A stretch of DNA of 64,000 nucleotides from an uncultured Acidobacteriota bacterium (GTDB lineage: Bacteria > Acidobacteriota > Thermoanaerobaculia > Gp7-AA8): assembly GCA_963822445.1 (NCBI GenBank), contig CAWGHO010000003.1, positions 640,001 to 704,000 of the forward strand. The letters run 5' to 3'. The stretch's first letter is position 1; every line of letters begins with the position of its first letter. A model generated the notes under the pieces. That model worked only from the letters and a program-made list of their open reading frames with translations. It was not told the DNA's origin and searched no databases. Shown here piece after piece: positions 852 through 38,819 of the stretch. The position numbers and the translations under genes were made by a program.

Positions 852-3053
852 TCACCTCACCGCCCGCCGTCGCACCGGAGCGGCCTGCCGTACGAACAGT
901 CGCGAGATCCCGCCGACCCCCGGCGCGTCGTCGACCTGCGTGTGCATGACCACCGGAGTCGTGCCGACGGCCGTCGCGGCGATACTCACATCGTGATCGG
1001 CGACCGGGAATGGTGGGGTCGTGTAAACGTCGCCCTGCGACTCCAGCGCCGGGGAAAGGCGCTCGTGCCGGATCGTCGCCGTCTGATAGTCCCCCTTCCA
1101 CCAGTAGACGTCTACCTCGCCGTTCGCCAGCGGGGCGATGTCGCCGAGTGCGCCGCGGACCAGCGGAGCGGAGGGAGCGAGCGGTCCCGCGCCGGTGTAG
1201 CGCGCGAGGCGAGTCTCGATCGCGAGGTCGAACCGGGCCTGGGTCCAGGCCAGGATCACGCCCTGCGGTGAGGCCTCGGCTTTCAGATCGCGGCTGGAAT
1301 TGTCCGTGACATGGAGCTCGACCGGGGAGGCCTCGACCGGCTCCCCGGCGGAGGTCACATGGAGCGCGCGGATCGGGGCGGGAACCGCCATCGGAGGATC
1401 GATCATCTCGAAGACGTTGTAGCGCCAGGCCACGAAGAACCGTTCACCATCCCACACCGCCACGGCCGAGTCTTCGCTCCCCTCGGTTTCCCCGGAGATG
1501 GCCAGCTCGCGCATCGTGCCGTCAGCGCGAAGGACGGTGGCCAGGAGATCCCCGTCGTAGCGATCGCGCGGCGCCGTGCTCCAGACCACGGCCAGTGCGC
1601 CATCTCCCGCGGCACCGGCGACCGCGCGCGAAGCACCCGCGGGCGGATCGAATGTGAGCGGCTCGGCCTCGATCGGTATCAGAGCCCCGGTGTAGCGGCG
1701 CACGCCGAGTTTTCCGTTGCCTGCCCAGACCACCCACAGCGTGCTGCCGTCGTACGCGAGATCCAGCCACTGCGCATCCGTGTTCGGCGCGACCAGCAAC
1801 GGCGCCGCCCCCGGGCGCGCGAGCCGGACATCGCTGGTCCCGATCGAACGGTCGAGCCACGCCGTGACCGCCTGGCCGTCCACGCGCTCCACCGCGGGCA
1901 GCAACTGTTCGTGGGCGCCGCTGGCCGCGTCGATGATCGTGTGGAATGGAGTGGCAGTGTCGATCGACGCACTGCCGAAGAGGCCCACACGTACCGACCA
2001 CTTCTCATCGAGCCAGGCCGCGGCGCCGCTGCCGTCGCTCTTCACGGCGATGTTCGGCCAGTCGGGGCGAATGTTCTTCGCCACCAGCGTCGGCGTCCCC
2101 ATCTGCGCACCGGTCGGGTCGAGTCGCGCGAGGAACAACTCCCGCGGCAGGTCATAACCGCCGCGCATGTACATCATCACGTAACCGCCGCCGCGCCAGG
2201 CGACCGCCGGTGAGTAGAGCGCGCGATCAGGGTGGGGAAGACCGGCGTCCGCGGTGCCGACGGTGCGCGGCTCGCCGGAGCTTTCGTCCTGCGCGATCAC
2301 GCGGCCGACGATGTTGCTCCGCTCGCGCCACACCGCCAGGGATTCATTGCCGTTCGCGGCGATGTCGATGCTGTCCGCCCCCAGCGAGCCGGTCACCGTC
2401 TTCGCGGCCTGCAGGGTTTGCGCGGCGTCGACAGTCTGCGTCACCACCGGGTACGGAAGCTCGCGCGAGGCCACGGCGATCCGATAGGCGTCACCGATCG
2501 CGGTGACAGCCAGTCCGCCGACGGTCCACATCCTCGTGGCGAGTTGCATCTGCTTCAGGACGCGGAGCTCACGGTCGAGCAGGAAGAGGTCGCGCCCGCA
2601 CGTCGCCACCAGAATCGTGTTGCCGTTGCTGGCGATCTTCGCGCCGCCGCATTCGGAATTCAGCGGGGCGATGCGCTTGATCCGCAGTCGCTCGTCCGCG
2701 TACGTCGCGGCGTAGTAACCGTCGTATGCGTGCCACGCCAGCGCGTAGCCGTGGCCTGTCGCGACGACGGTGGGATCGTTGCCGAGGCCGAACGGAATGC
2801 CGGCCGGATCGAGAACGTGTCCGTCCGCGGAAAGGCGCGTGCCATAGATGTGGTCCACGACCGACCGGCGCCGGTCGCCCCAGACCACAAAGTACGAATC
2901 GCCGTCCGTGGCGATGCGGGACATCCTCTTCTCCGAGAGCGTCGGTCCGTATTCAGGAACAGAGACCGGAACCGCAGGTCCGAGACGGGGAGTGGCGGCA
3001 AGGGCGGATGTCGTGAGGGCCCCGCAAAGGATCGTGACGATGGCGAGACGCAT
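852..3053 (-). CDS. Secreted repeat (beta-propeller-like) protein with C-terminal RRRAVR tail
   Basis: 733-aa ORF with a signal peptide, repeated 'DG..YxVVW' blade motifs, and the ending QAAPVRRRAVR. Confidence 0.75.
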   Translation of the reverse strand: MRLAIVTILCGALTTSALAATPRLGPAVPVSVPEYGPTLSEKRMSRIATDGDSYFVVWGDRRRSVVDHIYGTRLSADGHVLDPAGIPFGLGNDPTVVATGHGYALAWHAYDGYYAATYADERLRIKRIAPLNSECGGAKIASNGNTILVATCGRDLFLLDRELRVLKQMQLATRMWTVGGLAVTAIGDAYRIAVASRELPYPVVTQTVDAAQTLQAAKTVTGSLGADSIDIAANGNESLAVWRERSNIVGRVIAQDESSGEPRTVGTADAGLPHPDRALYSPAVAWRGGGYVMMYMRGGYDLPRELFLARLDPTGAQMGTPTLVAKNIRPDWPNIAVKSDGSGAAAWLDEKWSVRVGLFGSASIDTATPFHTIIDAASGAHEQLLPAVERVDGQAVTAWLDRSIGTSDVRLARPGAAPLLVAPNTDAQWLDLAYDGSTLWVVWAGNGKLGVRRYTGALIPIEAEPLTFDPPAGASRAVAGAAGDGALAVVWSTAPRDRYDGDLLATVLRADGTMRELAISGETEGSEDSAVAVWDGERFFVAWRYNVFEMIDPPMAVPAPIRALHVTSAGEPVEASPVELHVTDNSSRDLKAEASPQGVILAWTQARFDLAIETRLARYTGAGPLAPSAPLVRGALGDIAPLANGEVDVYWWKGDYQTATIRHERLSPALESQGDVYTTPPFPVADHDVSIAATAVGTTPVVMHTQVDDAPGVGGISRLFVRQAAPVRRRAVR

Positions 3054-3196
3054 GTGGTTTCTCCAGAGAACAATATGCTACAAAAGCATAAGGAAAGCGA
3101 GGGTCGGGCCCCGCTCGAAATGGGGCACGCGGCGACCGTCGGCTACCGCATCGATGACGAATCACGGCAGCAGTTCGGATCGTCGGGCCCACGGGT

Positions 3197-3225
3197 CACG
3201 GGTTCGAATCCCGTTGAGGACGCCA
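3197..3225 (+). pseudogene. tRNA 3' fragment (T-arm + acceptor strand + CCA), tRNA-Glu-like; att-like scar
   Basis: ACGGG-TTCGAAT-CCCGT T-arm followed by TGAGGAC-G-CCA. No pairing 5' half lies immediately upstream. Confidence 0.65.
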
Positions 3226-3250
3226 CTGGCGCCGACCCCCTCGACCTACC

Positions 3251-3274
3251 TTACCCCGCAGGAACCCTGCGGTA
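3251..3274 (+). terminator. Hairpin downstream of the tRNA fragment
   Basis: CCGCAGG-AAC-CCTGCGG stem flanked by TTA/TAA; no clear U-tract. Confidence 0.35.
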
Positions 3275-3354
3275 ACTCCGGGCGGGCGTGGCCCACCCAT
3301 TATTATTTGCAACACGAATTCGTCCGCGTACACTGTCGCGTGGTCCGTTTGCTT

Positions 3355-6068
3355 ATGCGCTTCCGACAGCTGCTCCTTGCCGGGGTTCTCCTTCTCGCGG
3401 CCGCTCCGATGGACGCCGCGGTGCAGGTGAGCATCACCAAACCACAGCCGTCGGAGCTTAGCGGCGATCTGCTGACAGTCAACGCATCGGTGACGTCGAC
3501 GTATCAGTTGCAGAGCGTCACGGCGACCGTGGCCGACCGCTCCACGAGCCTCACCTTCGACTCGTCGTTCGGTCGCTGGACCTGCACGCTCGATCTGACC
3601 GGATTGCCGCGAGGGCCGCTCCAGCTCACCGTCGCCGCGCAGGACGTCTTCGGTAGCACCGACTCGGAACAGGTGACGTTCATCCATGATCGCAAGCCGG
3701 TCATCACGATCGTCGCACCTCTGTCCGAGACCGTGGCCAGGCCGCTCATCCGCATCACCGCCTCCTGTTCGGACGACGATGCCGCCGGCTGTTCCTCGAT
3801 CCGCGTCCGTCCTGGCGCCAACGATGCCGTCACCCTGGCTTCGGGCGTCTCCTCGATCGATCAGGACGTATCGCTGGACGCGTTCGAGGGCCAGACCCTC
3901 GCCCTCGTGTTCGTCGCGACCGACTCTGCACAGCAGGTCACGACTGCCCTACGCTTCGTCCACGTCGACTCCAGCGCGCGCCTGCATGAGTTTCAGGAAG
4001 TGACCGGCCGCATCGTCGATGCGCAGCCGGACCGGATTCTCTTCCTCGATCAGTCCGGAACGTTTCTCAAGATCCGCGACATCGCCACCGCCGCTGACAC
4101 GGATCTCCCCGCCACCCCCGGGAAGAAGCCGGGGAAGAGCTTTCTGACGCCGCGTGGCGCGATCTTCTCCGCGTTCGGCGCGACTGTGGTCGATTCGACC
4201 GTCTATGAGTGGCAGGACGGGAACCTGCTGACGCACACGCATCCAGACTCCGAGTCTTCCCTGGAGGTGACGGGCGCCTACGCGATCTGGACCGGCCCGC
4301 GCGAAACGGACCGGACCGGCCCCACCTACCTTTTCCGCCGCGACATCCTGGCCGGCACGACCACGGAAGTGCCGTTCGTTGAAGTCGGCAACAACTCGAA
4401 CGACGTCGACGAGGACGGTACGGTGGCGTTCTGGAGCAGCAATCCGTACAACATCCACCGGTACAACGGCGGACTGCAGCAGGTGACGAATTCGAACGGG
4501 TCGCTGTGGTACACCTACCCGCTTCTGGACGGCTCGAGCACGCTCTATCGCAAGCACTCGCCGTGCTGCGGCGGCCAGATGTGGGCGATCGCGCATCACG
4601 ATGGCACCAGCGAGACCGAGATCTCACCGTTCAGTTCAACGGAGGTGGCGCAGGACGCCGACTACCAGATCCGCAATGGCTGGATCGCCGTCACTCGCCC
4701 GGGGACGGCCGGCGAACGGCAGGTCTGGCGGCTGGCACCCGACGATTCTTCTCCACCTCGAGCAGGATCGACCTTCTCGGTTCCAACGGCGAGCTGACAT
4801 TCATCAATTACTACCCGAACCGGCAGCGATTCCTCAGCACGCTTTCGGACACGAGCGCCGTCAATTCAGTCCTCGGTAGCGCGTATCACCTCGACGGCGA
4901 GTGGTACGTCGCCATCGGCCGCACGCTCTTCTCCATCGGCGACGCCGGGACGGCCACCACGACGACCGTGACCTCGTCTCCGAATCCGTCCGTGGCCGGT
5001 GAGCCGGTGACGCTCACGGCGACGGTCTCCGGCACCGGTGCCACCGGCATGGTGGCATTCAAGGACTGGCACACCACGATCGGAGCGGCGCCGCTTTCCG
5101 GCGGAACGGCTACGTTCTCCACCTCGTCCCTCTCCCTCGGCTGGCACACGATCTACGCGGTGTACGCCGGCGACGCGAACTTTGCGCCGAGCACTTCTCC
5201 CTCGCACGCGCATCAGGTGAGAACGGCCAGTACCACCACCCTCACCTCCGCGCCCAATCCATCCGACATCGGAACCAGCGTCACTCTGACCGCCACGGTG
5301 ACGGGAAGCGGTGCAACCGGCGAGGTGACGTTCTACGACGGCGCGACCACGCTCGGCACGGCCGCTCTGTCGGGCGGCACGGCCAGCATCTCGCGCACGT
5401 TCCTCGACGTGGGCTTCCACGAGCTCACCGCCACATACAGCGGCGACGCGACGTACGGCGCCAGCACGTCGCCCGTGCACATGCACTCCGTGCGGCCACC
5501 GTTCGGGACACCGTCAGGCCTCACGGCAACGCCGACCGCCCCGAATGAGGTGACCGTGACCTGGAACGGAGTCTCCGGAGCAACTGAATACGAGGTCGCA
5601 CGCGGAACGAATACCACCAATTTCGAGACCATCGGGTCCGTCACCGGCACGTCGTTCAACGACACGACCGTCTCGAGCAACACCACCTACCTCTACATTG
5701 TCCGCGCGATCGGATCCTCCGGCGCCTCGGACTACAGCAGTCTCGACGCGGCGACGACGGTCGTGTTCACGAACGATCCGCTGACGCCGGGCGTCCCCGT
5801 TTTTGCAGTGCACGTGACCCAGCTGCGTGTGGCTGTGAGTGCGATGCGCAGCGCCGCCGGCCTGCCGCCCGCGGCCTTCACCGACCACGTGCTTCCGGCC
5901 GGCAGCCCCATCAAAGCCCTGCACATCCAGCAGCTGCGCGATGCCCTCTCGGCGGCGCGTTCGGCGCTGGGCCTGCCGCCGCTCGCGCTGACCGATCCGA
6001 CGCTGACGCCCGGCGCGACGCCCCTCAAAGCCGCGCACTTGCAGGAGCTGCGCGACGGCTGCAAGTGA
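3355..6068 (+). pseudogene. Frameshifted large secreted protein (Ig-like domains, propeller-like region, two bacterial Ig repeats, FN3, C-terminal tri-repeat domain)
   Basis: ATG 3355 with a signal peptide. The reading frame switches near 4745 from ORF 2848..4797 to ORF 4506..6068. The downstream part has TTTTVTSSPNPS Big-like repeats and FN3. Confidence 0.7.
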
Positions 6069-6165
6069 TAGCTCGCCGTTCGCAGCTCTCTACGGATTAC
6101 GATTCGACTTTCGGGGGGGACGCTAGCGACGACCGCGGCTGTGATGGTTGGCCCAGCGCCCGCGT

Positions 6166-8547
6166 TCAACGCACCCCGTCGCGAAGCTCGTTGATCTCCA
6201 CCCCCCGCACCGGCGAGACGCTTGGCTGCAACACGGGATGCGCGGGCACGATCGCGGACAGGCCGAGCGAGGCGCGAGCGGCAGCGAGCGCAGAGCGAAG
6301 CTCCGTGATGTGCACGGCGCGGATCGGGACGCCAACGAGCGCTGGGTCAGACCACGTCGCGGCCGAAAGGCCGGCGAGAGTGCGCACGGCGTTCACCGCG
6401 TTGCGGAGTTCACTCACGTGGACCGCTTGAACGACGGTGGCCATGGACACGATCGGGTCGTTCGTGAACGTCATCGCGGTCATCAGGTCAGCGGCGCTCC
6501 ATGCCGAGGGGAGCGTGCCGCTCCGTGTGGCTCGGGCGCGATAGGTGTATGCCGATCCGGGCGTGACTGATGCGTCGGTCGTGGCCAGTGACGGCGTCGA
6601 GATCGTGACGCCGTCGTTGCGGGTCACTTCGTAGCCGGTAGCTCCCGGGACGGCGTTCCAGGCGATTGCGGCCGCGGATCCGTTGTAGTGAGCAGTGACG
6701 TTCGCGGGGGCGGCCAACGGTTCGTAGTACGGATTCACGCCGAGTTGCGCGAAGACGTTCCACGACGTGGCCCCGGTATGCAGTCTTCCGAAGTACTCGA
6801 AGCCGAACCCGGTCGAGAGGCCATCGTGACTCGCGGCGACGATCCCTTCGCCGTCGCCGTTCGTCGCCGTCTGTTGTGCGGAGCGGAGAGTCTGACGGTA
6901 CGTATCGGCTTTTACCGCGTCGCCGGCCACGGCATAGGCGACGGTCATCTGCGCCGTCCCTTCAAACCAGACCCCGTCGCGGTCTTCATTGAAGTCGAAC
7001 CCGCTGAATCCATCGGCGGTCGTCGCGTGGTTCGCTTCGGCGCAGCCGAGGATCGTTGGATGGGCCGCGAGCGCGTTCGGCAGCGAGAGCACCGCCCACG
7101 CCTGCGCGTCGAGCGGAAGCATCCCGGACGCGGTGTTGCGCGTCTCCGGGTCGTTCGTTCCGGTCAGATAACAGCCGCCGTTCCACATGGCCTCGACGAA
7201 GTCGCGCGCGTGTGCGGCGCCGGTCTGCCAGCGCGTCTCGCCCGTAACCGCGTACAGGCGCGAGAACACGGCATTCACGTCGAGATTGTGCTCCGTGCTG
7301 GCGAACGCCCGCGTGATCGTCGATCCGCCGGGATATTCGAGACCGCCGAGGAAGCCGCGATAGGTGCCGGAGTCATTGCGGAACGCGTCAATGAGGTTGC
7401 CGAGCTTGCACGCGGCGTCGAGATACTTCGTCTCGAGCGTCCGCTGGTGCAGCGCGAGCAGCGCGAGTGCGGCCCAGGCGTTGTTCCCGACGTCCACAGT
7501 CTGCGCGCCGGCAAGGGGCACGGTGCCGGAGCGGCCGTGCGGCGTCCAACCCGGCGGCAGTGCGATGTCCCCCGACGCGTACGAACTGCGAAGACGCGCG
7601 CCATCGACGGTCTGCGGGTCGATCGCGACAGCACACGATCGGTTGTCATTGAAGACCACGTCGTGCTCCATGGCCTCGATGAACGCGTCACCGATCAGCT
7701 TCGCCCGCCTCACGCTGTCGCTCGAGCCGTCAGCGAGAAACGCCAGGGCCACCAGGGCGTTGTCGTAAGTGAAGGAGATCCTGCGCAGCGCGAGATCGAC
7801 GCCGCTGTTCAGCGCGAGCGTCGTGTAACTGCGGAGAAACCGCGGCTCGTTGAGCCGCGCTTCGGTCTGTGCCGGACCGAGCGTGTATTCGATGTCGTCG
7901 AGGTAGAACGTCGCTCCGCCCGGATTGTGCAACGTCTCGGCGAGCCAGCCGAACCCGCCGATCACATACGAGAGATTCATTCCGGTGAGATCGATCGAGT
8001 ACTGCTGCCAGGCATTGGTGAGCGTCGTTCGCGTTCCCGCTGCCGGCCGCCGCGATGCCGAGTCGCCGTAAGGTCCGCCGACACCGGCGAGGAAAAATTC
8101 GACTTGTTCGCCGCCGCTCTCGCCGCGTGCCCAGAACGTCAGCGTCGTCGCTCCGGCGAGCGCTGTGATTCCTGCGTTGGGGACCGTTCCCCAGTTCGGT
8201 GCCGGCGTGGTGTCGGTTCCGGTGAGCGTGCCGTTCAGGAAATACCACCCGGCCCATCCAGATGCCGAGGCCGCGTCGTAATGGCAACGGATCGCAGTCG
8301 CTCCCGTGTGCCGGGTCGCGGTCCACGAAGCGTCGAGTGAGGTCACTCCATCCGCCGGCATTTTGTCGTAGGCCACGAAGTGATTGCCCGGCGATTCGTC
8401 GTCGTCATAGACGAAGAAGCGGCTGTGGTCATGGTCCATGACCTTCTTCAGATACTCGATGCTGGCCGACACGGATTGCTGCGCCGGTTGCGCGAAGGCC
8501 GGCGTTCCCGCCAGCAGCAGAACGAGGCAGAACCGGCCAGATCGCAT
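6166..8547 (-). CDS. Secreted protein: carbohydrate-binding-like domain + (alpha/alpha)6 glycoside-hydrolase-like domain + FN3 + C-terminal tri-repeat domain
   Basis: Signal peptide; LTFWARG..FYLDDI beta-sandwich; YDNAL / STEHNLD / VWFEGT motifs. Confidence 0.7.
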   Translation of the reverse strand: MRSGRFCLVLLLAGTPAFAQPAQQSVSASIEYLKKVMDHDHSRFFVYDDDESPGNHFVAYDKMPADGVTSLDASWTATRHTGATAIRCHYDAASASGWAGWYFLNGTLTGTDTTPAPNWGTVPNAGITALAGATTLTFWARGESGGEQVEFFLAGVGGPYGDSASRRPAAGTRTTLTNAWQQYSIDLTGMNLSYVIGGFGWLAETLHNPGGATFYLDDIEYTLGPAQTEARLNEPRFLRSYTTLALNSGVDLALRRISFTYDNALVALAFLADGSSDSVRRAKLIGDAFIEAMEHDVVFNDNRSCAVAIDPQTVDGARLRSSYASGDIALPPGWTPHGRSGTVPLAGAQTVDVGNNAWAALALLALHQRTLETKYLDAACKLGNLIDAFRNDSGTYRGFLGGLEYPGGSTITRAFASTEHNLDVNAVFSRLYAVTGETRWQTGAAHARDFVEAMWNGGCYLTGTNDPETRNTASGMLPLDAQAWAVLSLPNALAAHPTILGCAEANHATTADGFSGFDFNEDRDGVWFEGTAQMTVAYAVAGDAVKADTYRQTLRSAQQTATNGDGEGIVAASHDGLSTGFGFEYFGRLHTGATSWNVFAQLGVNPYYEPLAAPANVTAHYNGSAAAIAWNAVPGATGYEVTRNDGVTISTPSLATTDASVTPGSAYTYRARATRSGTLPSAWSAADLMTAMTFTNDPIVSMATVVQAVHVSELRNAVNAVRTLAGLSAATWSDPALVGVPIRAVHITELRSALAAARASLGLSAIVPAHPVLQPSVSPVRGVEINELRDGVR

Positions 8548-32406: not shown

Positions 32407-34689
32407 ATGCCCATCCGCAGCTTTCAGGCAAAGCTCCTCTACCTGATGGTCGCCGTCCTGATCCTGCTTCAGGCTGCGACGCTGATCGCCGTGCATGTGG
32501 CCGGGCAGAAGACGATGTTCGCGAGCATCGACGACGAGCTCCGCGTCGGCACGCGCATCGTCGACCAGATTCTGGCGAAGCAGGGCGAGCAGCTCTCCCA
32601 GACCGTTCGCGTGCTCGCCTCCGATTTCGCGTTCCGCGAAGCCATTGCGCTCGGTGAAAGACCGACGATCACCTCCGCGCTCGCGAACCATGGCTCGCGC
32701 ATCTCGGCCGACGTCGGATTTCTGATCTCGCTCGAGGGCGTGGTCATCGCCGATACCGTCGGCGGCCGCGTGGTCGGTCATGGCTTTCCCCGTTCCGCGC
32801 TCGTTCAGGAAGCGCAGACACGTGGTGAGTCGTCGGGGATCGTCTCGCTCGATGGTCATCCGTACCAGCTGGTCGTAGTTCCGGTCCTCGGCCCGCAGCC
32901 GATTGCCTGGGTCTGCATGGGATTCGAGATCGATTCGGCGATGCTGAACGAAGTCCGGCGTCTGACCGGTCTCGACGTGTCCCTTTTGAACGCCGCGGCC
33001 GGCGCCAAGCCGCTGTCGATCTCCACGCTCCCGCCGGACCAGATCGGCGCCGACGGCTATCGCTCGCGTTCCCATCCGCTGACCACCGCGGACAACTCGC
33101 GGATCAACACGCTGCTGCAGCGCTCGATCGAAGAAGCGTCCCATCCGTATCGCCAACTCGAACTGCGGATCGCCGGGCTGTCGACGATGGCCCTGATCGT
33201 CGCGCTGATCGCGGCGAGTCTCTTCGCGCGCGGCGTCAGCCGTCCGCTGGAACAGCTCGCGGAAGGGGCGGCGCGCATCGAGCGAGGCGACTACGCGGAG
33301 CCGGTGGACATCCGCCAGCGCGACGAGATCGGACGGCTGGCCACTGCCTTCGACAAGATGCGCACTGGTATCGCGGAGCGCGAGGAGCAGATCCGTTATC
33401 AGGCCCTGCACGACGCGCTGACCGGCCTTCCCAATCGCGTGCTGTTCATGGAGCGATTGCACGAGGCGGTGATCCGCGCGAAGCGCTCGCAGCAGATGGT
33501 GGCGATCATCATCATGGATCTCGATCGCTTCAAGGAGATCAACGACACGCTCGGCCATCACTTCGGCGACGAGTTGCTGAAGGAGATCGGCCAGCGGCTG
33601 CTCGACCTGCTGCGCGATACCGAAACGGTGGCGCGTCTCGGCGGCGACGAGTTCGCGGTGACGTTCTACGTGAGCGAGGCCGCCCGTGCCGCGGACATGG
33701 CCCGCCGGGTGTGCGACGCGCTCGAAGCGCCGTTCGTGCTCGCCGGCGTGTCCATCGAAGTTGCGGCGAGCATGGGCATTGCCGTCTGTCCGCTGCACGC
33801 CGACGATGCGGAGACGCTGATGAAGCGCGCCGACGTGGCGATGTACGACGCGAAGGAGACCCACAGTGCATACGCCATGTACGCGCCGGGTCGCGACGAG
33901 CATTCACTGCGCAGGCTGGCGATGCTGTCCGAGTTGCGTAACGCCATCGCCCGCGATGAATTGACGCTTCACTATCAGCCCAAGGTTGGCGTGAGTGACG
34001 AGAGCGTGCATGCCGAGGCGCTGGTGCGGTGGCGGCATCCGGTGCATGGGATCATGCGGCCGGATGAATTCATCCCGTTGGCCGAGCAATCGGGCAACAT
34101 CGGGATGATCACGAAATGGGTGCTGCGCAAGGCCATCACGGATTGCGGAGCGTGGAACGCGGCCGGACTGGATATCAGCGTCGCCGTGAATCTCTCGGCG
34201 CTCGATCTGTTCGACACGAAACTGCCGACCTACATCGATGGCCTGCTGACCGAGGCCGCGCTTCCGCCGTCGAAGGTGGTGCTGGAGATCACCGAGAGCG
34301 CGGTCATGAAGGATCCCGTGCACGCGGCGAAGATCCTCCGCGATCTGAAACGCCGCGGGGTGAAGCTGGCCATCGATGATTACGGCACGGGCTACTCGTC
34401 GCTCGCGCACCTGAAGCGGCTGCCGGTCGACGAGCTGAAGATCGACAAGTCGTTCGTAATGCATCTGCGGAATGCCTCGACGCAGGACCTCCTCATCATC
34501 CGCTCGACGATCGACCTCGGCCACAACATGGGCCTGAAGGTGATCGCGGAAGGGGTGGAGGATGCCGAGGCGTTGCAGATCCTGCGGGAGCTCGGGTGCG
34601 ACATGGCCCAGGGTTACTACATCAGCCCGCCGCTGCCGATTGCGGAGCTGCAGGAGTGGTTCAAGACGTTCGCGCTGGCGCGGGTGTGA
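32407..34689 (+). CDS. Membrane-bound diguanylate cyclase/phosphodiesterase (periplasmic sensor-HAMP-GGDEF-EAL)
   Basis: Two TM helices; HAMP (DEIGRLA); intact GGDEF; EALVRW, DDYGTGYSSL and KIDKSFV. Confidence 0.93.
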   Translation: MPIRSFQAKLLYLMVAVLILLQAATLIAVHVAGQKTMFASIDDELRVGTRIVDQILAKQGEQLSQTVRVLASDFAFREAIALGERPTITSALANHGSRISADVGFLISLEGVVIADTVGGRVVGHGFPRSALVQEAQTRGESSGIVSLDGHPYQLVVVPVLGPQPIAWVCMGFEIDSAMLNEVRRLTGLDVSLLNAAAGAKPLSISTLPPDQIGADGYRSRSHPLTTADNSRINTLLQRSIEEASHPYRQLELRIAGLSTMALIVALIAASLFARGVSRPLEQLAEGAARIERGDYAEPVDIRQRDEIGRLATAFDKMRTGIAEREEQIRYQALHDALTGLPNRVLFMERLHEAVIRAKRSQQMVAIIIMDLDRFKEINDTLGHHFGDELLKEIGQRLLDLLRDTETVARLGGDEFAVTFYVSEAARAADMARRVCDALEAPFVLAGVSIEVAASMGIAVCPLHADDAETLMKRADVAMYDAKETHSAYAMYAPGRDEHSLRRLAMLSELRNAIARDELTLHYQPKVGVSDESVHAEALVRWRHPVHGIMRPDEFIPLAEQSGNIGMITKWVLRKAITDCGAWNAAGLDISVAVNLSALDLFDTKLPTYIDGLLTEAALPPSKVVLEITESAVMKDPVHAAKILRDLKRRGVKLAIDDYGTGYSSLAHLKRLPVDELKIDKSFVMHLRNASTQDLLIIRSTIDLGHNMGLKVIAEGVEDAEALQILRELGCDMAQGYYISPPLPIAELQEWFKTFALARV

Positions 34690-34691
34690 GA

Positions 34692-34738
34692 GCCGGCGGG
34701 ACGCCGGCGGACCAGCCGGCGAGGACGCCAGCGCTCCA
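34692..34738. repeat. REP-like palindromic unit
   Basis: GCCGGCGGGACGCCGGC..CCAGCCGGCG..CGCTCCA closely matches the reverse complement of 26815-26860; lies between convergent genes. Confidence 0.75.
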
Positions 34739-34749
34739 AAACGCCGGCT

Positions 34750-35760
34750 CTACCGCAGCCTTCCGCCCACACTCACGATCACCGTCGGCCCCTGCGTGAA
34801 CGCATCGCCTTCGGTCAGCGTGCGCTGCGAAATCGGATGACGAACATCCGCGCTAAGTGAGAACGCCTCGAGGTTGAGCGTCACACCCGCGGCAACACTC
34901 GTCGCAACGAGCCCCGTATTCTCATCGCGCAGGTCATCCCAGTACCCATACCCCTGGGCAAAGGCCGTCCCCTCCGCGCGGATCCGCACGCGATCGGACA
35001 CGCGCTGCGACACGTGCACGCTCAGCGCGCCGTCGGGTGGCGCACGAAAGCCGCGGCGATTTTCGTAAATCGGCAGGCGCGCGTTCATCGATGCACCGGC
35101 GGTGAGGCGATCGGTGATCGGCGTCGAGTAGCTTGCCTCGAAGAGCGGATCAATGGTGCCGGTGCCGAACTGGATGTGCAGATGCTCGCGGCCTTGTTCG
35201 CCGAGGAGGTAGGGGTTTTCGACGGTGGCGCCGGTGGGGAGCGTGGCGCCGAGCGAGACATTCAGCCTCGTCCAGCGCCGGCGGGCGAGGAACATCAGAT
35301 CGCTGATGCCGCGCAGCGTCGCCGTGCGGTGATGCAGATCGATGTTCCGTTGCATCGCGGCCTGGTCTTCGGCAGATGCCGCATCGACGACGCCCAGTCC
35401 GGAGCGTTGTTCCTTCTGCTCCCACGGAACGCGCGCGATCAGGTCCCACTCCGGCGTCAGCGTGTATTGCAGGCCGAGCTCGACGCGCAGGTAATCCAGC
35501 GAGGTCTCGTGGCGATACAGCGGCACCGGTACCGGCGCGCCGGAAGACGTGTTCCCGGTTCGCGAGAAATGCCCTCCCTTGAAATCACTTCCGTAAAGCG
35601 TGGTCAGGGAGAACCGGATTGCGCCTGGAGCCAACCCGGGCTCCAACCCGCGATCGCCGCCGCGCGGGATCGCAGGATTGCTTCAGGCCGGTCACGTCTG
35701 GCCGGTCGCGGCGGGCGTGATGACGAAGATCGCCAGCGCCGCCAGCAACACCCGGATCAC
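34750..35760 (-). CDS. Secreted barrel-like protein with two in-frame TGA codons (candidate UxxU selenoprotein, 336 aa)
   Basis: GTG 35760 overlaps the upstream stop (GTGA). A 20-aa signal peptide is followed by Q-T-TGA-P-A-TGA-S-N-P, in frame with ORF 34750..35646. Confidence 0.75.
35647..35676 (-). promoter_or_regulatory. Candidate bacterial SECIS stem-loop
   Basis: mRNA CCUGCGAUC-CCGC-GCG-GCGG-C-GAUCGCGGG begins 6 nt after the second UGA. Confidence 0.55.
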
Positions 35761-36410
35761 CGAGTGCGCCTCGCGATGAGCGCTTTGATCTTGTCGATGT
35801 CGTTGCCGACGACCTCGCCGATGAACTTTCCATCCGGGCCGTACACGCGAACGTAGGGAAGGGCGGCGAGCTTGAATTCCTTCGTGGCCTGTTTCGCCGC
35901 CGCCGATTCCCAGTTCTGCAGATCGATCGTCCGCAAGGCGACGTTGGCGTTGTCCTTTACCAGATGCTCGATCTTCGGCGTGAGCACGTGGCAGGGACCG
36001 CACCATTCCGCCCAGAAATCGACGATCGTGAACTTGCCGCGGACGAGATGGTCGCGCAGGACGAAGGCCTCGCCATTCGAGGCGACCTTGATGTCCAGCG
36101 CGGCGCGCTCCTGCGGCGTGAGGCGGGCGCGGACGACGTCACCCGCGAAGGTAGCTTCGAATCCGAATTTGCCGAGCGCGGCGCGGATCTCCGCGGGAGC
36201 GACGAGTCGCGTCGATTCGACGCGGCCGCGTTTCATCGCGTAGGTCACGTCGACGTTCGTCACGCCGGGAAGCTTCTTGAGTGCGTCGGATGCCGTAGCC
36301 GAGCATCCATCGCAGGAGAGTCCGGCCACGTCGAACTCCGAGACGAACGTCTGCGCGCCGGCGGTCAGAGCCGTCAGCGTGAGAAAGGCGATCGTTGCCA
36401 GGGTTCGCAT
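35757..36410 (-). CDS. Secreted heavy-metal-associated (HMA) domain-thioredoxin fusion
   Basis: Signal peptide; GLSCDGC HMA motif; VDFWAEWCGPC thioredoxin motif; ATG 36410. Confidence 0.85.
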   Translation of the reverse strand: MRTLATIAFLTLTALTAGAQTFVSEFDVAGLSCDGCSATASDALKKLPGVTNVDVTYAMKRGRVESTRLVAPAEIRAALGKFGFEATFAGDVVRARLTPQERAALDIKVASNGEAFVLRDHLVRGKFTIVDFWAEWCGPCHVLTPKIEHLVKDNANVALRTIDLQNWESAAAKQATKEFKLAALPYVRVYGPDGKFIGEVVGNDIDKIKALIARRTR

Positions 36411-36455
36411 GCTCCCGGCGTAACCGGTGCGGATGCCACTTAGTATTCCCGGCGC

Positions 36456-38819
36456 ATGGCGTTGCTCCTCTACCTCGCGACCGCGCTGGTGATCCTCTGG
36501 CTCGCGCACCGGTTCATCAGGCCGATCTCTCGCGCGGCCGCGATGGTGCTGCTCGCACTGCCGTTCGCGATCGCGGGCTACGCGCTCATCACCAGCGGCG
36601 TGTACGGCCCCGTCGATCATCCATATCAATACCCGCCGCTCTCCGCGCTCGCGGAGGAGCACGGCATCGGACCGGCCCGAAACGCCTCGGCCATCGACAT
36701 CTGGAGCGAGTTCTATCCCTGGCGGCTGGCGGTGAAGGAGTCGCTGGCGCGCGGGGAGTGGCCGCTGTGGAACGCGTACAACCTGGCCGGTCATCCGCTC
36801 GCGGCCGAAGCGCAGTCGGCGCCGTTCTCGCCGTTCACGCTGCTCGCCTGTCTGCTGCCGGCGATGCTGAGCTGGACCTACTCGCTGGCCATCGTCCTCT
36901 TCATCGCCGCCCTCGGCGCATTCCTCTTCGCGCGCGAGCTCGGATGCGGCGAAGGGGCCTCGCTCGTCGCCGCGATCGGCTGGGGCCTGGCCTCCTGCAC
37001 CGGCTCGCGACTGACGGCGATGGGTTTTTCGACCGCGTACGCCCCCATGCTCCTCGCGGCCGTCCGCCGTGTAGTGTGGGCCTCCGGCCTACCTTCTTCG
37101 GTTTCTTCCGGCGCGTTCCTGACCGTGACCCTCACCCTCACTCTCCTCGAAGGCCACCCCGAGTCCCTCTTCCTCAACGTTCTCGTCGGCTCTGCTTACG
37201 CACTCTTCGAACTAATCCGCCGCCGCGCCGCCCCCTGGCGCGCGATCGCAACAGCCGTTGCCGCAGGCGCAATCACCCTGCTCCTCTGCGCGATTGCCTT
37301 GCTGCCGCTCCTCGAAGCGATTCCCCAGTCGCACGAGTACCTGGTGAAGAGCGATGCTCTCGCCGACGTCCCGCGCGGTCTGCCGAATCGCCACGTTGCG
37401 GCGGCGCTGGCCACGAATCTCTTTCCCTATCTCCAGGTCCGTCACTGGCTGAAGCCGGACGCCGGCTACGTCGCGCCGGAAACGACGCCGGTGGGCAGCA
37501 TCATCCTCGCGCTGTCGATCTACGCGGTCTGGCGCAGACGATCACCGGAAACGTGGTTCTTCGCCGGTCTGGCCGTGTTCTGCCTGCTGACCGGAGCGCG
37601 CTGGGCGCCGATCGCGGACACGCTGCACAAGCTCCCGCTGCTGAACATCACCTTTCATGACCGTCTCGCTTTTCACGGCGCAATCTGCCTGATCGTGCTG
37701 GCCGCGCTCGGCGTCGAGCATTGCCTGCGAACGAACGACCGCCGCGCGGTGATGTTCACCATGCTGGCGACACTCGCTTTCGTCATCGCCGGCACGTTCT
37801 GGCTGCAAACCAACACCATCCTCGCCACCACCGCCGCCGACTACGGCCGCTATCGCATCCTCGGCGAAATCGTCTTTCTCGCAGCGGCGACGTTGTTGCT
37901 CGCGTCGCGATCGCGCGTGTTGCTGCCGGCGCTGCTGGCGCTGCTGGTCGGCCAGCGCGCGCTCTCCGAGATCGACACGTTCGGGAACTTTCCGCTCAAA
38001 GCCGCTTATCCGCCGGTCGTGATGCTCGAGCCGCTGAAGCAGATTCGCGAGCCGTTCCGCATCGTGGGAGCTGGCCTTGCGCTGCCACCGGCGGTGAACA
38101 CGTTCTACGGCGTGGAAGACGTGCGCGGCTACGAGGCGCTCACGCTCGATCAGTTCGTCACGACCTGGAAGCTGTGGTGCCGGCGGCATGGGATCTGGTT
38201 CAACCGCGTCGACGATCTGACTTCGCCATTCCTGTCGCTGATGAACGTGCGCTTCGCCATTCAGTCGGACGATCTCCCGGTGCCGGTGGGCTGGCGAGTC
38301 GTTGGAAAGCAGCCAGGGGCGATGCTGCTGGAGAACGCGAACGTCATCGATCGCATCTTCGTGCCGTCGCGAGTCGTGCTTTCCGGCGCGCTTCCCGAGG
38401 AGATCGTCGACCGCATGGCGCCCGTTCGCGACTTTCGCGAGATCGCCTGGATCACCTCCCGCTCCGCCCAGCCCGAACAGCCGAACGGTCCCGGCAAAAT
38501 CACCCTGCGCTCCCGCAGCCGCGGCGGCGAATACGTCTTCGATGCGGCGATGGAGAACGACGGGTACGTGGTGATCAGCGACGCCGCATGGAAAGGCTGG
38601 CGCGCTTACGTCGACGGGCGCCGCGTTTCGCTCAATCGCGCGAACGCCGCGTTTCTGTCGGTGCTGGTGCCGAAAGGGCGGCACACGGTTCGGGTGGTGT
38701 ACATGCCTGGATCGTTCGTGCGCGGCCGGGCGATCAGCATCAGTACGCTGATGCTGATCGCCGGCGTGGCCCTGATTCGCCGTTACGGCAAAGACACGTT
38801 GTTCAGAGCGAGGGGATAG
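36456..38819 (+). CDS. YfhO-like polytopic membrane protein (putative GT-C glycosyltransferase)
   Basis: GEWPLWNAY, GHPE and GWRAYVDG..VPKGRHTV motifs; many TM helices. Confidence 0.8.
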   Translation: MALLLYLATALVILWLAHRFIRPISRAAAMVLLALPFAIAGYALITSGVYGPVDHPYQYPPLSALAEEHGIGPARNASAIDIWSEFYPWRLAVKESLARGEWPLWNAYNLAGHPLAAEAQSAPFSPFTLLACLLPAMLSWTYSLAIVLFIAALGAFLFARELGCGEGASLVAAIGWGLASCTGSRLTAMGFSTAYAPMLLAAVRRVVWASGLPSSVSSGAFLTVTLTLTLLEGHPESLFLNVLVGSAYALFELIRRRAAPWRAIATAVAAGAITLLLCAIALLPLLEAIPQSHEYLVKSDALADVPRGLPNRHVAAALATNLFPYLQVRHWLKPDAGYVAPETTPVGSIILALSIYAVWRRRSPETWFFAGLAVFCLLTGARWAPIADTLHKLPLLNITFHDRLAFHGAICLIVLAALGVEHCLRTNDRRAVMFTMLATLAFVIAGTFWLQTNTILATTAADYGRYRILGEIVFLAAATLLLASRSRVLLPALLALLVGQRALSEIDTFGNFPLKAAYPPVVMLEPLKQIREPFRIVGAGLALPPAVNTFYGVEDVRGYEALTLDQFVTTWKLWCRRHGIWFNRVDDLTSPFLSLMNVRFAIQSDDLPVPVGWRVVGKQPGAMLLENANVIDRIFVPSRVVLSGALPEEIVDRMAPVRDFREIAWITSRSAQPEQPNGPGKITLRSRSRGGEYVFDAAMENDGYVVISDAAWKGWRAYVDGRRVSLNRANAAFLSVLVPKGRHTVRVVYMPGSFVRGRAISISTLMLIAGVALIRRYGKDTLFRARG

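Follow-up and report, generated by a model that had tools for sequence, protein, structure and literature searches.

A probable di-selenocysteine outer-membrane barrel protein and its HMA-thioredoxin partner in an uncultured Acidobacteriota bacterium

Outer-membrane channels of the COG4313/PF13557 type, such as Pput2725 of Pseudomonas putida F1 (solved structure 4rl8), are implicated in the uptake of hydrophobic molecules. The structure paper describes a 12-stranded monomeric barrel in which the lumen is blocked from the periplasmic side by an N-terminal segment, with no inward-folding extracellular loops (PMC4493636). Pairs of selenocysteines (Sec, U) in the arrangement U-x-x-U are known from a Prx-like family, the HMA-type family NF041115 and the FmdB family (PMC13188914). 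Here we analyze a gene on the minus strand at positions 35760 to 34750 of a 64,000-nucleotide (nt) stretch of DNA from an uncultured Acidobacteriota bacterium (contig CAWGHO010000003.1), hereafter the window. We hold with high confidence that this is a real gene for a protein with two selenocysteines. The product resembles the COG4313 channels in its 12-stranded barrel, which is predicted, and in the N-terminal segment ahead of strand 1. Unlike them, it has a U/C-x-x-U/C motif, an HMA-thioredoxin partner, and conserved histidine motifs, which lie in two long loops. Sec insertion as such would be ordinary; what is new, very probably, is an undescribed family whose architecture combines a COG4313-like barrel, two Sec at the start of the mature protein, and an HMA-thioredoxin partner.

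The NCBIfam family NF041115 ('UxxU_metal_bind', a 'putative mercuric reductase' with UxxU and 2 Sec; PMC13188914) also has a Sec pair with CxxC spacing, thought to bind soft metals, and has homologues in cysteine (Cys) form. It is a small HMA-fold protein, whereas the UxxU of the window protein sits at the mature N-terminus of a barrel without an HMA fold. The NF041115 profile gave no hit for the barrel and scored the HMA domain of the partner, which carries Cys, at 35.6 bits (cut-off 95). In MerP/MerT and their selenoprotein relatives (PF02411 and the MerT/CopZ fusion-like NF045683), too, paired Cys or Sec ligands pass a thiophilic metal between envelope proteins. The partner HMA domain resembles MerP/CopZ, and MerA stands beside the gene pair in four Bacteroidota loci. 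The window barrel differs from both: MerT is helical and sits in the inner membrane, and MerP is a free HMA protein of the periplasm. The available part of a mer-operon survey mentions no outer-membrane component (PMC8261052).

Outer-membrane beta-barrels with in-frame Sec have been catalogued as the FCYXU type of TonB-dependent receptor (NF049945) and the GSU2204/MtrB-PioB barrel (NF041027) (PMC13188914). Judged from their catalogue rows, these differ in having one Sec each and in being much larger barrels of other families, and neither model matches the window protein. Eukaryotic selenoprotein L shares the U-x-x-U motif and is described as Prx-like with a thioredoxin fold (PMC2398784), whereas the window protein has no thioredoxin fold, a bacterial hairpin inside the open reading frame (ORF), and a membrane barrel. 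None of the families in the 119-family selenoprotein catalogue of a 2026 review corresponds to it (Table 1, PMC13188914), and our literature searches found no description of a di-Sec barrel family. The 'Hypothetical protein GOS_A' (2 Sec sequences, 155 Cys homologues, no domain; PMC2398784) may belong to the same family. As far as these searches show, the window protein is the first outer-membrane barrel known to open with a UxxU pair.

The whole coding sequence (34750-35760) has 336 codons followed by a TAG at 34752-34750, and homologues share its architecture. It begins with a GTG codon (35760-35758) that aligns with the M-R start of homologues and overlaps the TGA stop (35759-35757) of the upstream ORF, which ends ...ACT CGG TGA, so that the two genes are joined by GTGA coupling. 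With TGA read as U, residues 1 to 35 are V-I-R-V-L-L-A-A-L-A-I-F-V-I-T-P-A-A-T-G-Q-T-U-P-A-U-S-N-P-A-I-P-R-G-G. Residues 2-22 (35695-35757) form a signal peptide, with a hydrophobic leader in all 17 loci examined and a helix at 2-14 in the structural model. Judged by eye from the -3/-1 small-residue rule, signal peptidase likely cuts at A-T-G / Q-T-U. A lipoprotein reading was rejected, as the residues that precede the first U/C (A-Y-A, G-Q-T, Q-E-S, G-Q-A) form no lipobox by eye. The two in-frame TGA codons are Sec23 (35694-35692), in a column that is TGA or TGY in motif-bearing homologues and Thr in the database proteins P0115 and P0116, and Sec26 (35685-35683), in a column that is always U or C in alignment A1. 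After Q-T-TGA-P-A-TGA-S-N-P the frame stays open for 310 codons, and the read-through product has 336 residues. An earlier note on this DNA, made from the letters alone, had described the overlapping start, the signal peptide, the CxxC-spaced TGAs and about 310 open codons, and all of these lie on the minus strand where it placed them.

Under translation table 11 the longest ORF here is a 298-aa piece started by TTG (34750-35646). A protein database search with the read-through sequence returned 115 hits, one of them an NCBI 'hypothetical protein' of 298 aa. Most are about 297-310 aa long with a query coverage of 84-89%, which marks them as truncated gene calls, as the earlier note had expected of gene callers. 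This truncation drops the signal peptide and the sole obvious functional motif.

To examine how the TGAs are conserved, we searched 41 genomes (the host's own and 40 relatives) with the read-through protein. Matches were found in 11 of 24 other genomes of the same genus and in none of 16 outside it. These homologues share 30-64% identity with the query, and both TGAs stand at the same aligned positions in 11/11. The pattern is a start codon, a signal peptide, and TGA-P-A-TGA-[AS]-N-P, and both TGAs lie inside the match in 10 of the 11. In the eleventh homologue (L030; G003:C2, reverse strand) both TGAs (A-Y-A-TGA-P-A-TGA-G-N-P) lie upstream of a frameshift. The frame of this copy shifts after ...E-C-A-T-M, about 50 codons past the motif; the copy is a pseudogene, or else its 4-contig assembly contains an indel error. 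A wider draw of 401 genomes from the phylum yielded nine with a match, including the window's own; of the other eight, six have two TGAs and two have one. Motif variants within Acidobacteriota are U-A-G-U (L039), C-A-G-U (L040) and U-S-G-C (L041).

The Cys form appears as Q-[AG]-C-P-A-C-S-N-P-A-L in 10 of 16 fetched database proteins, as full-length Bacteroidota hits. A scan of one genome per species, with H-x-H-I-Q-F-G-T-G-T as the pattern, gave 390 relatives, and motif states and neighbors were read for the best 80 of these, which span at least six phyla. The motif (UxxU, CxxU or CxxC) was seen in 78 of the 80; of the other two, one is masked and one lies at a contig end. UxxU is held by Thermoanaerobaculia and other Acidobacteriota, Planctomycetota, Gemmatimonadota, Eisenbacteria and many Poribacteria, CxxU by a Poribacteria clade, and CxxC (C-P-A-C) by Bacteroidota (18 distinct loci). 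The earlier note had proposed asking what homologues carry at the two codons; the answer is TGA or Cys, with mixed CxxU and UxxC forms as well, and never Trp at either column.

Among 89 distinct proteins, 47 are UU, 23 CU, 1 UC and 18 CC, so that TGA occupies at least one position in 71. A tree of these proteins was built from the part after the motif, with the motif columns left out and eight rows dropped (5 duplicates, 2 short, 1 with X). On it, position 1 changes at least four times and position 2 at least twice; thus each TGA has been swapped with a Cys codon more than once. Because the TGAs are conserved in many independent assemblies, they are not read errors, a possibility the earlier note had raised. 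Metagenome contigs of relatives include a 1280-nt contig with 128 differences that spans 34759-36019 and a 96-nt contig that spans 35635-35721. No letter at the TGA codons differs among the contig matches listed, from which we draw no inference. A search of sequencing runs for the window returned three DNA runs with a small share and no RNA run.

Some copies are broken or duplicated. One Acidobacteriota copy lies in three pieces (L038, L042 and L043) across about 5.6 kb (G280:C12:780779-786343); its first piece stops 111 codons past the motif and looks interrupted, perhaps by inserted DNA. One Poribacteria locus (L065) holds paralogues with C-A-A-U and U-G-A-U (3040-4000 and 5611-6650) around a short CDF-like gene (4668-5333).

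The truncated annotation implies that the TGAs are ordinary stops, with translation starting downstream (e.g., at the TTG at 35646), or that the gene is a decaying pseudogene whose apparent leader is a chance frame. Most of the 115 database entries carry that shorter form, GC-rich genomes are rich in long spurious frames, and the window hairpin considered below is not significant alone. However, the truncated form lacks a signal peptide, which an outer-membrane beta-barrel requires. The leader, the TGA motif and S/A-N-P are kept in frame in the 71 distinct TGA-bearing sequences from several phyla, and the genes in Cys form run uninterrupted from signal peptide through C-P-A-C to barrel. Moreover, purifying selection on the protein downstream of the TGAs is clear from its 30-66% identity and its invariant motifs. 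We consider ordinary stops very improbable.

The host is equipped to decode UGA as Sec. Its assembly (3 contigs, 6.0 Mb, 94.7% complete) contains a tRNA-Sec (71.1 bits, gathering score 47; called SeC with anticodon tca by ARAGORN), selA (488.6 bits, cut-off 267.9), selB (368.6 bits, cut-off 242.25) and selD (371 bits, cut-off 125), the last with one in-frame TGA. All four components that the earlier note had suggested looking for are therefore present above their cut-offs. The selD gene (locus L018, G000:C2:1710833-1711771) indicates that selenophosphate synthetase is itself a selenoprotein in this host. Elsewhere, selA was found in both Poribacteria genomes with TGA forms that were tested and in none of three Bacteroidota genomes with CPAC forms.

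UGA read-through by Trp or Cys tRNAs occurs in bacteria, and Sec is assigned here by computation, so the UGAs might instead be read as another residue, by near-cognate Trp or Cys decoding or under a reassigned code. Yet the gene immediately upstream uses TGA as a normal stop, and homologues have Cys, never Trp, at both columns. In the five genomes just mentioned, TGA forms go with selA and Cys forms without it, and structured hairpins follow the TGAs in TGA forms only, as judged by model scores that are a weak control. Decoding as another residue is thus highly unlikely. Both positions combine Sec/Cys exchange with the presence of the machinery, which is the standard computational evidence for a selenoprotein. 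The conserved TGAs, the Cys counterparts, the machinery and the leader sustain the earlier note's proposal of an exported di-Sec protein, and none of the three refuting conditions named in that note was borne out.

Folding of the strand placed two hairpins downstream of the TGAs. Hairpin 1 (35644-35680, minus strand), the candidate selenocysteine insertion sequence (SECIS), has a long GC-rich stem and an apical GCG loop (35661-35663). Its main stem, CCUGCGAUC, begins 7 nt past the second TGA; the loop lies 19 nt past the second TGA and 28 nt past the first, and 16 positions are paired. The GC-rich stem-loop that the earlier note had pointed to is thus real. Hairpin 2 (35628-35643, minus strand) consists of GGAGC, a CGGGUU loop that begins 44 nt past the second TGA, and GGCUC. 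In the bSECIS model the stem has 4-16 bp and carries a loop of 3-9 nt with G in its first two positions; the loop follows the UGA by 16-37 nt in most bacterial SECIS elements, and the minimum free energy (MFE) is -7.5 kcal/mol or lower (PMC13188914). Checked by hand, hairpin 1 agrees with four constraints of this model (PMC13188914) for both UGAs. The 54-nt segment past the second TGA, which holds both hairpins, folds at -28.6 kcal/mol, which is the MFE of the pair and not of hairpin 1 alone.

Two hairpins are present in most Sec forms, comparable to those of the window: the loop of hairpin 1 lies 11-20 nt past the second TGA, and that of hairpin 2, in many of them of the G(G/U)U type, 33-45 nt past it. 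Of the 71 distinct Sec-type sequences, 59 went into a covariance model. In an alignment of 60 sequences to this model, hairpin 2 has 99.2% of cells paired and compensatory changes at four of six pairs, and it is conserved across phyla. Slid control positions were at most 52% paired, and no shuffle reached the observed covariation score. Covariation, which the earlier note had proposed examining, is thus present in hairpin 2. The 12 sequences set aside from the model (nine single-hairpin Acidobacteriota loci plus L039, L040 and L041) have one hairpin 17-18 nt past the second TGA, of the form CCUCUCC-GGC-GGAGNGG or CCUGCC-GGUC-GGCAGG. Covariation support in this set is thin because all three of its compensatory pairs come from L041.

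Several observations weigh against these hairpins as recoding signals. The window fold, taken by itself, is matched in stability by 15 of 200 dinucleotide shuffles (z = -1.61). Since this fold is unexceptional for its GC content, the case for more than chance rests on comparison. Hairpin 2 lies 42-54 nt past the first TGA, always outside the 16-37 nt range, and its distance of 33-45 nt from the second TGA is also outside that range in most sequences. The alignment was fitted to the model structure, which favors pairing. Hairpin 1 is only 65-92% paired in it, with register shifts between lineages; a single two-hairpin model fits hairpin 2 well and hairpin 1 poorly, because the register and length of hairpin 1 vary among them. 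On the supporting side, mean fold z across relatives, from mononucleotide shuffles, is -1.9 for UxxU (n=49), -3.1 for CxxU (n=21) and -0.9 for CxxC (n=18). In the covariance-model search Cys forms reached at most 25.9 bits versus 47-89 bits for Sec forms, a weak control because the model was built from Sec forms. An Rfam search of 35400-35900 returned no family at E <= 10; bacterial SECIS elements are poorly represented in Rfam.

The rest of the protein is predicted to be a barrel. AlphaFold2, run with an 80-row alignment, gave a mean predicted local distance difference test (pLDDT) of 89.8 and a predicted template modeling (pTM) score of 0.85. In the model, residues 48 to 335 (34756-35619, minus strand) form a barrel of 12 long strands, in line with the 'barrel-like' protein of the earlier note, and two long loops contain a helix each, at 130-143 and 183-188. 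The best solved match found by Foldseek is 4rl8, the COG4313 channel Pput2725 (E 4e-12, template modeling scores 0.59/0.73, identity 11%), followed by FapF. Sequence profiles detect little of this: the read-through protein matches no Pfam family at E <= 1, including PF13557, its best NCBIfam match has E = 0.088, and a precomputed PF13557 hit exists in 4 of 115 sequence relatives.

Conserved columns are U/C26, N28, P29, H64, H84, H143-H144-R145 and H193-x-H195-I-Q-F-G-x-G. The long loop that joins strands 3 and 4 carries the nearly invariant His143-His144 (in D-L-H-H-R; 35329-35334, minus strand), immediately behind helix 130-143, and the long loop that joins strands 5 and 6 carries the conserved His193-x-His195 (in H-x-H-I-Q-F-G-T-G-T; 35176-35184, minus strand). 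Given the usual topology of such barrels, both termini would be periplasmic and the His motifs would lie in long loops on the extracellular side.

Addressing how such a protein might work, we propose that both UGAs would be read as selenocysteine by SelB and tRNA-Sec, guided by the RNA hairpins just downstream. The product would be exported via its signal peptide and would fold in the outer membrane as a beta-barrel of 12 strands, similar in fold to COG4313 channels and FapF. Strand 1 would be preceded by a tail of about 25 residues that carries the mature start, Q-T-U-P-A-U-S-N-P. By analogy with the COG4313 channel, the Sec pair may lie at the periplasmic mouth or in the lumen, below a His cluster formed by H64, H84, HH143-144 and HxH193-195. 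There the Sec/Cys pair could bind a thiophilic metal, e.g., Hg(II) or Cu(I), for which the barrel would be the route across the outer membrane. The metal might then be exchanged between this pair and the HMA domain of a co-translated periplasmic partner, whose thioredoxin domain would keep the pair reduced in the oxidizing periplasm. Transport could run in either direction, as uptake towards MerA or as export after a CopA-type pump. We put this explanation as a whole, weighted to the di-Sec claim, at a probability of roughly 0.85. A hand-off of metal between barrel and partner, taken by itself, has slightly less than even odds in our judgement. The Sec/Cys exchange, the Sec machinery, the conserved hairpins, the predicted fold and the gene linkage are results of computation; metal binding, the identity of the metal, the direction of transport and the choice of hairpin that serves as SECIS are all surmised.

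The partner is the upstream gene (35757-36374, minus strand), which encodes 205 aa with a signal peptide, an HMA domain (G-L-S-C-D-G-C; Pfam 2e-10) and a thioredoxin domain (W-C-G-P-C; Pfam 1.2e-12). Of 97 motif-bearing loci, 45 have a homologue of this gene immediately upstream in the same orientation, among them nearly all those of Acidobacteriota, Bacteroidota, Gemmatimonadota and Eisenbacteria. The distance from the end of the partner ORF to the first U/C codon is 47-187 nt in the 41 loci whose partner ORF was found by script (47-106 nt in 39 of them); thus the partner ends at or just before the signal peptide of the barrel. In three cases (L039 at 1468-2973, P0115 and P0116) a thioredoxin domain (W-C-[IA]-P-C) is fused to the barrel C-terminus, and therefore barrel and partner are functionally linked. 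P0115 and P0116 retain only the second Cys of the N-terminal pair (A-T-C-S-N-P). A complex prediction for the Cys-form barrel of L054 and its partner gave no answer (score 0.00, with no controls) and is evidence neither way. Metagenome contigs stack at 35982-36037 of the window, with a summed depth of 410-630 against about 5 elsewhere. This stretch encodes the partner's thioredoxin active site, F-W-A-E-W-C-G-P-C, and the peak is almost certainly caused by many unrelated thioredoxin genes matching the conserved motif.

The partner also bears on the main rival to the metal hand-off, in which the di-Sec barrel is real and its UxxU/CxxC pair is a redox element rather than a metal ligand. The pair could act as a diselenide/disulfide switch by which the N-terminal plug is locked or opened, or as a catalytic pair that detoxifies envelope oxidants, and thioredoxin would recycle it. 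All 41 partners found by script have a canonical thioredoxin site, always with Cys (38 WCGPC, 2 WCAPC, 1 WCKPC), and the thioredoxins fused to barrels lack HMA. The script found no HMA motif G-[MLIV]-x-C-x-x-C in 9 of the 41 (e.g., L048 and L111), and most uncharacterized UxxC/CxxU selenoproteins are likely redox proteins (PMC13188914). On the other hand, the other 32 partners have an HMA domain with G-[MLI]-x-C-x-x-C, always with Cys. The single Cys of P0115/P0116 does not fit an obligatory intramolecular disulfide, and the conserved His cluster of the barrel suggests metal coordination. Under this redox explanation the metal genes found near the pair would mark general envelope stress islands, but it is metal genes in particular that lie there (MerA, CopA-type ATPase, CsoR-like repressors and CDF). 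We regard the redox explanation as unlikely, though worth keeping in view.

These neighbors come from the loci of relatives. MerA adjoins the pair in L060, L061, L064 and L073, as full or near-full tblastn matches, i.e., in 4 of 19 CxxC loci (18 distinct); those of L061 and L073 score 514 and 503 bits against TIGR02053 (cut-off 454). No MerA was found beside the Sec-form loci examined. CsoR/RcnR-like repressors occur near eight Bacteroidota loci, a copper-type P1B ATPase lies beside L054, and a relative of that ATPase occurs in L031. CDF genes were identified in L057, L065, L084, L087 and L099. Those of L084, L087 and L099 are CDF-like and stand on the upstream side of the barrel gene, immediately next to it in L099. 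YtkA-like genes are present in six Poribacteria loci, and a metal-type ABC system lies upstream in L056. From this context we infer a possible role in handling thiophilic metals. The earlier note's suggestion of a metal-binding or redox protein is in keeping with this gene context.

Other evidence weighs against the metal hand-off. No metal genes accompany the two-gene operon in the window, and the host genome has no MerA above the cut-off (best score 322.8 versus 454). No partner was found within 3 kb in Poribacteria and most Planctomycetota loci, so the partner is not obligatory. The N-terminal tail of the model (residues 1-45), which carries the Sec pair, has low confidence (pLDDT 46-64). 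The metal itself is left undefined because the neighboring metal genes are heterogeneous (Hg, Cu and Zn types).

The pair in the window is flanked by a GGDEF-EAL gene and a YfhO-like gene, and TIG and other unrelated genes occur in the window. A promoter and terminator scan of 34600-36600 found nothing. In the host, the MerA profile finds a region resembling a pyridine-nucleotide disulfide oxidoreductase (G000:C3:1788692-1790052), where the match is broken into three consecutive segments; a short one contains three TGAs, and the region could be a frameshifted gene or overlapping frames. In one Acidobacteriota genome a DDE transposase gene (L051:641-2035; PF13701, 503 bits) lies just upstream of the pair, which hints at mobility of the HMA-thioredoxin and barrel genes. 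The vWA and LRR-type neighbors of the Poribacteria locus L066 were considered as conserved context and dropped, as they recur in close relatives only.

The most far-reaching form of the metal hand-off is speculative, and we think it improbable though attractive. The barrel would be a gate in the outer membrane devoted to thiophilic metals (Hg, Cu, Ag) and the missing outer-membrane partner of mer- and cop-type systems. A diselenolate/dithiolate claw on the N-terminal plug would receive metal from the His-lined barrel and pass it to the periplasmic, MerP-like HMA domain, the fused thioredoxin would reduce the claw, and the tandem hairpins would help to decode the UGAs. If this were true, recoding would be arranged in an unusual way, with the better-conserved hairpin farther from the UGAs than SECIS elements usually are.

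The gene belongs to a widespread family, and for the organisms that carry it, it adds one of the few bacterial proteins with two selenocysteines. Because truncated calls lose the signal peptide and the motif, selenoproteome counts for Acidobacteriota, Poribacteria and Planctomycetota are underestimates. The four natural states of the motif (UU, CU, UC and CC) form a series in which to ask what selenium adds at each position, and the tandem hairpins are a test case for the recoding of two UGAs nine bases apart. The genes linked to the barrel (HMA-thioredoxin, MerA, CopA-type ATPases and CsoR-like repressors) make it a testable hypothesis that the traffic of mercury or copper in bacteria may include a specific step at the outer membrane.

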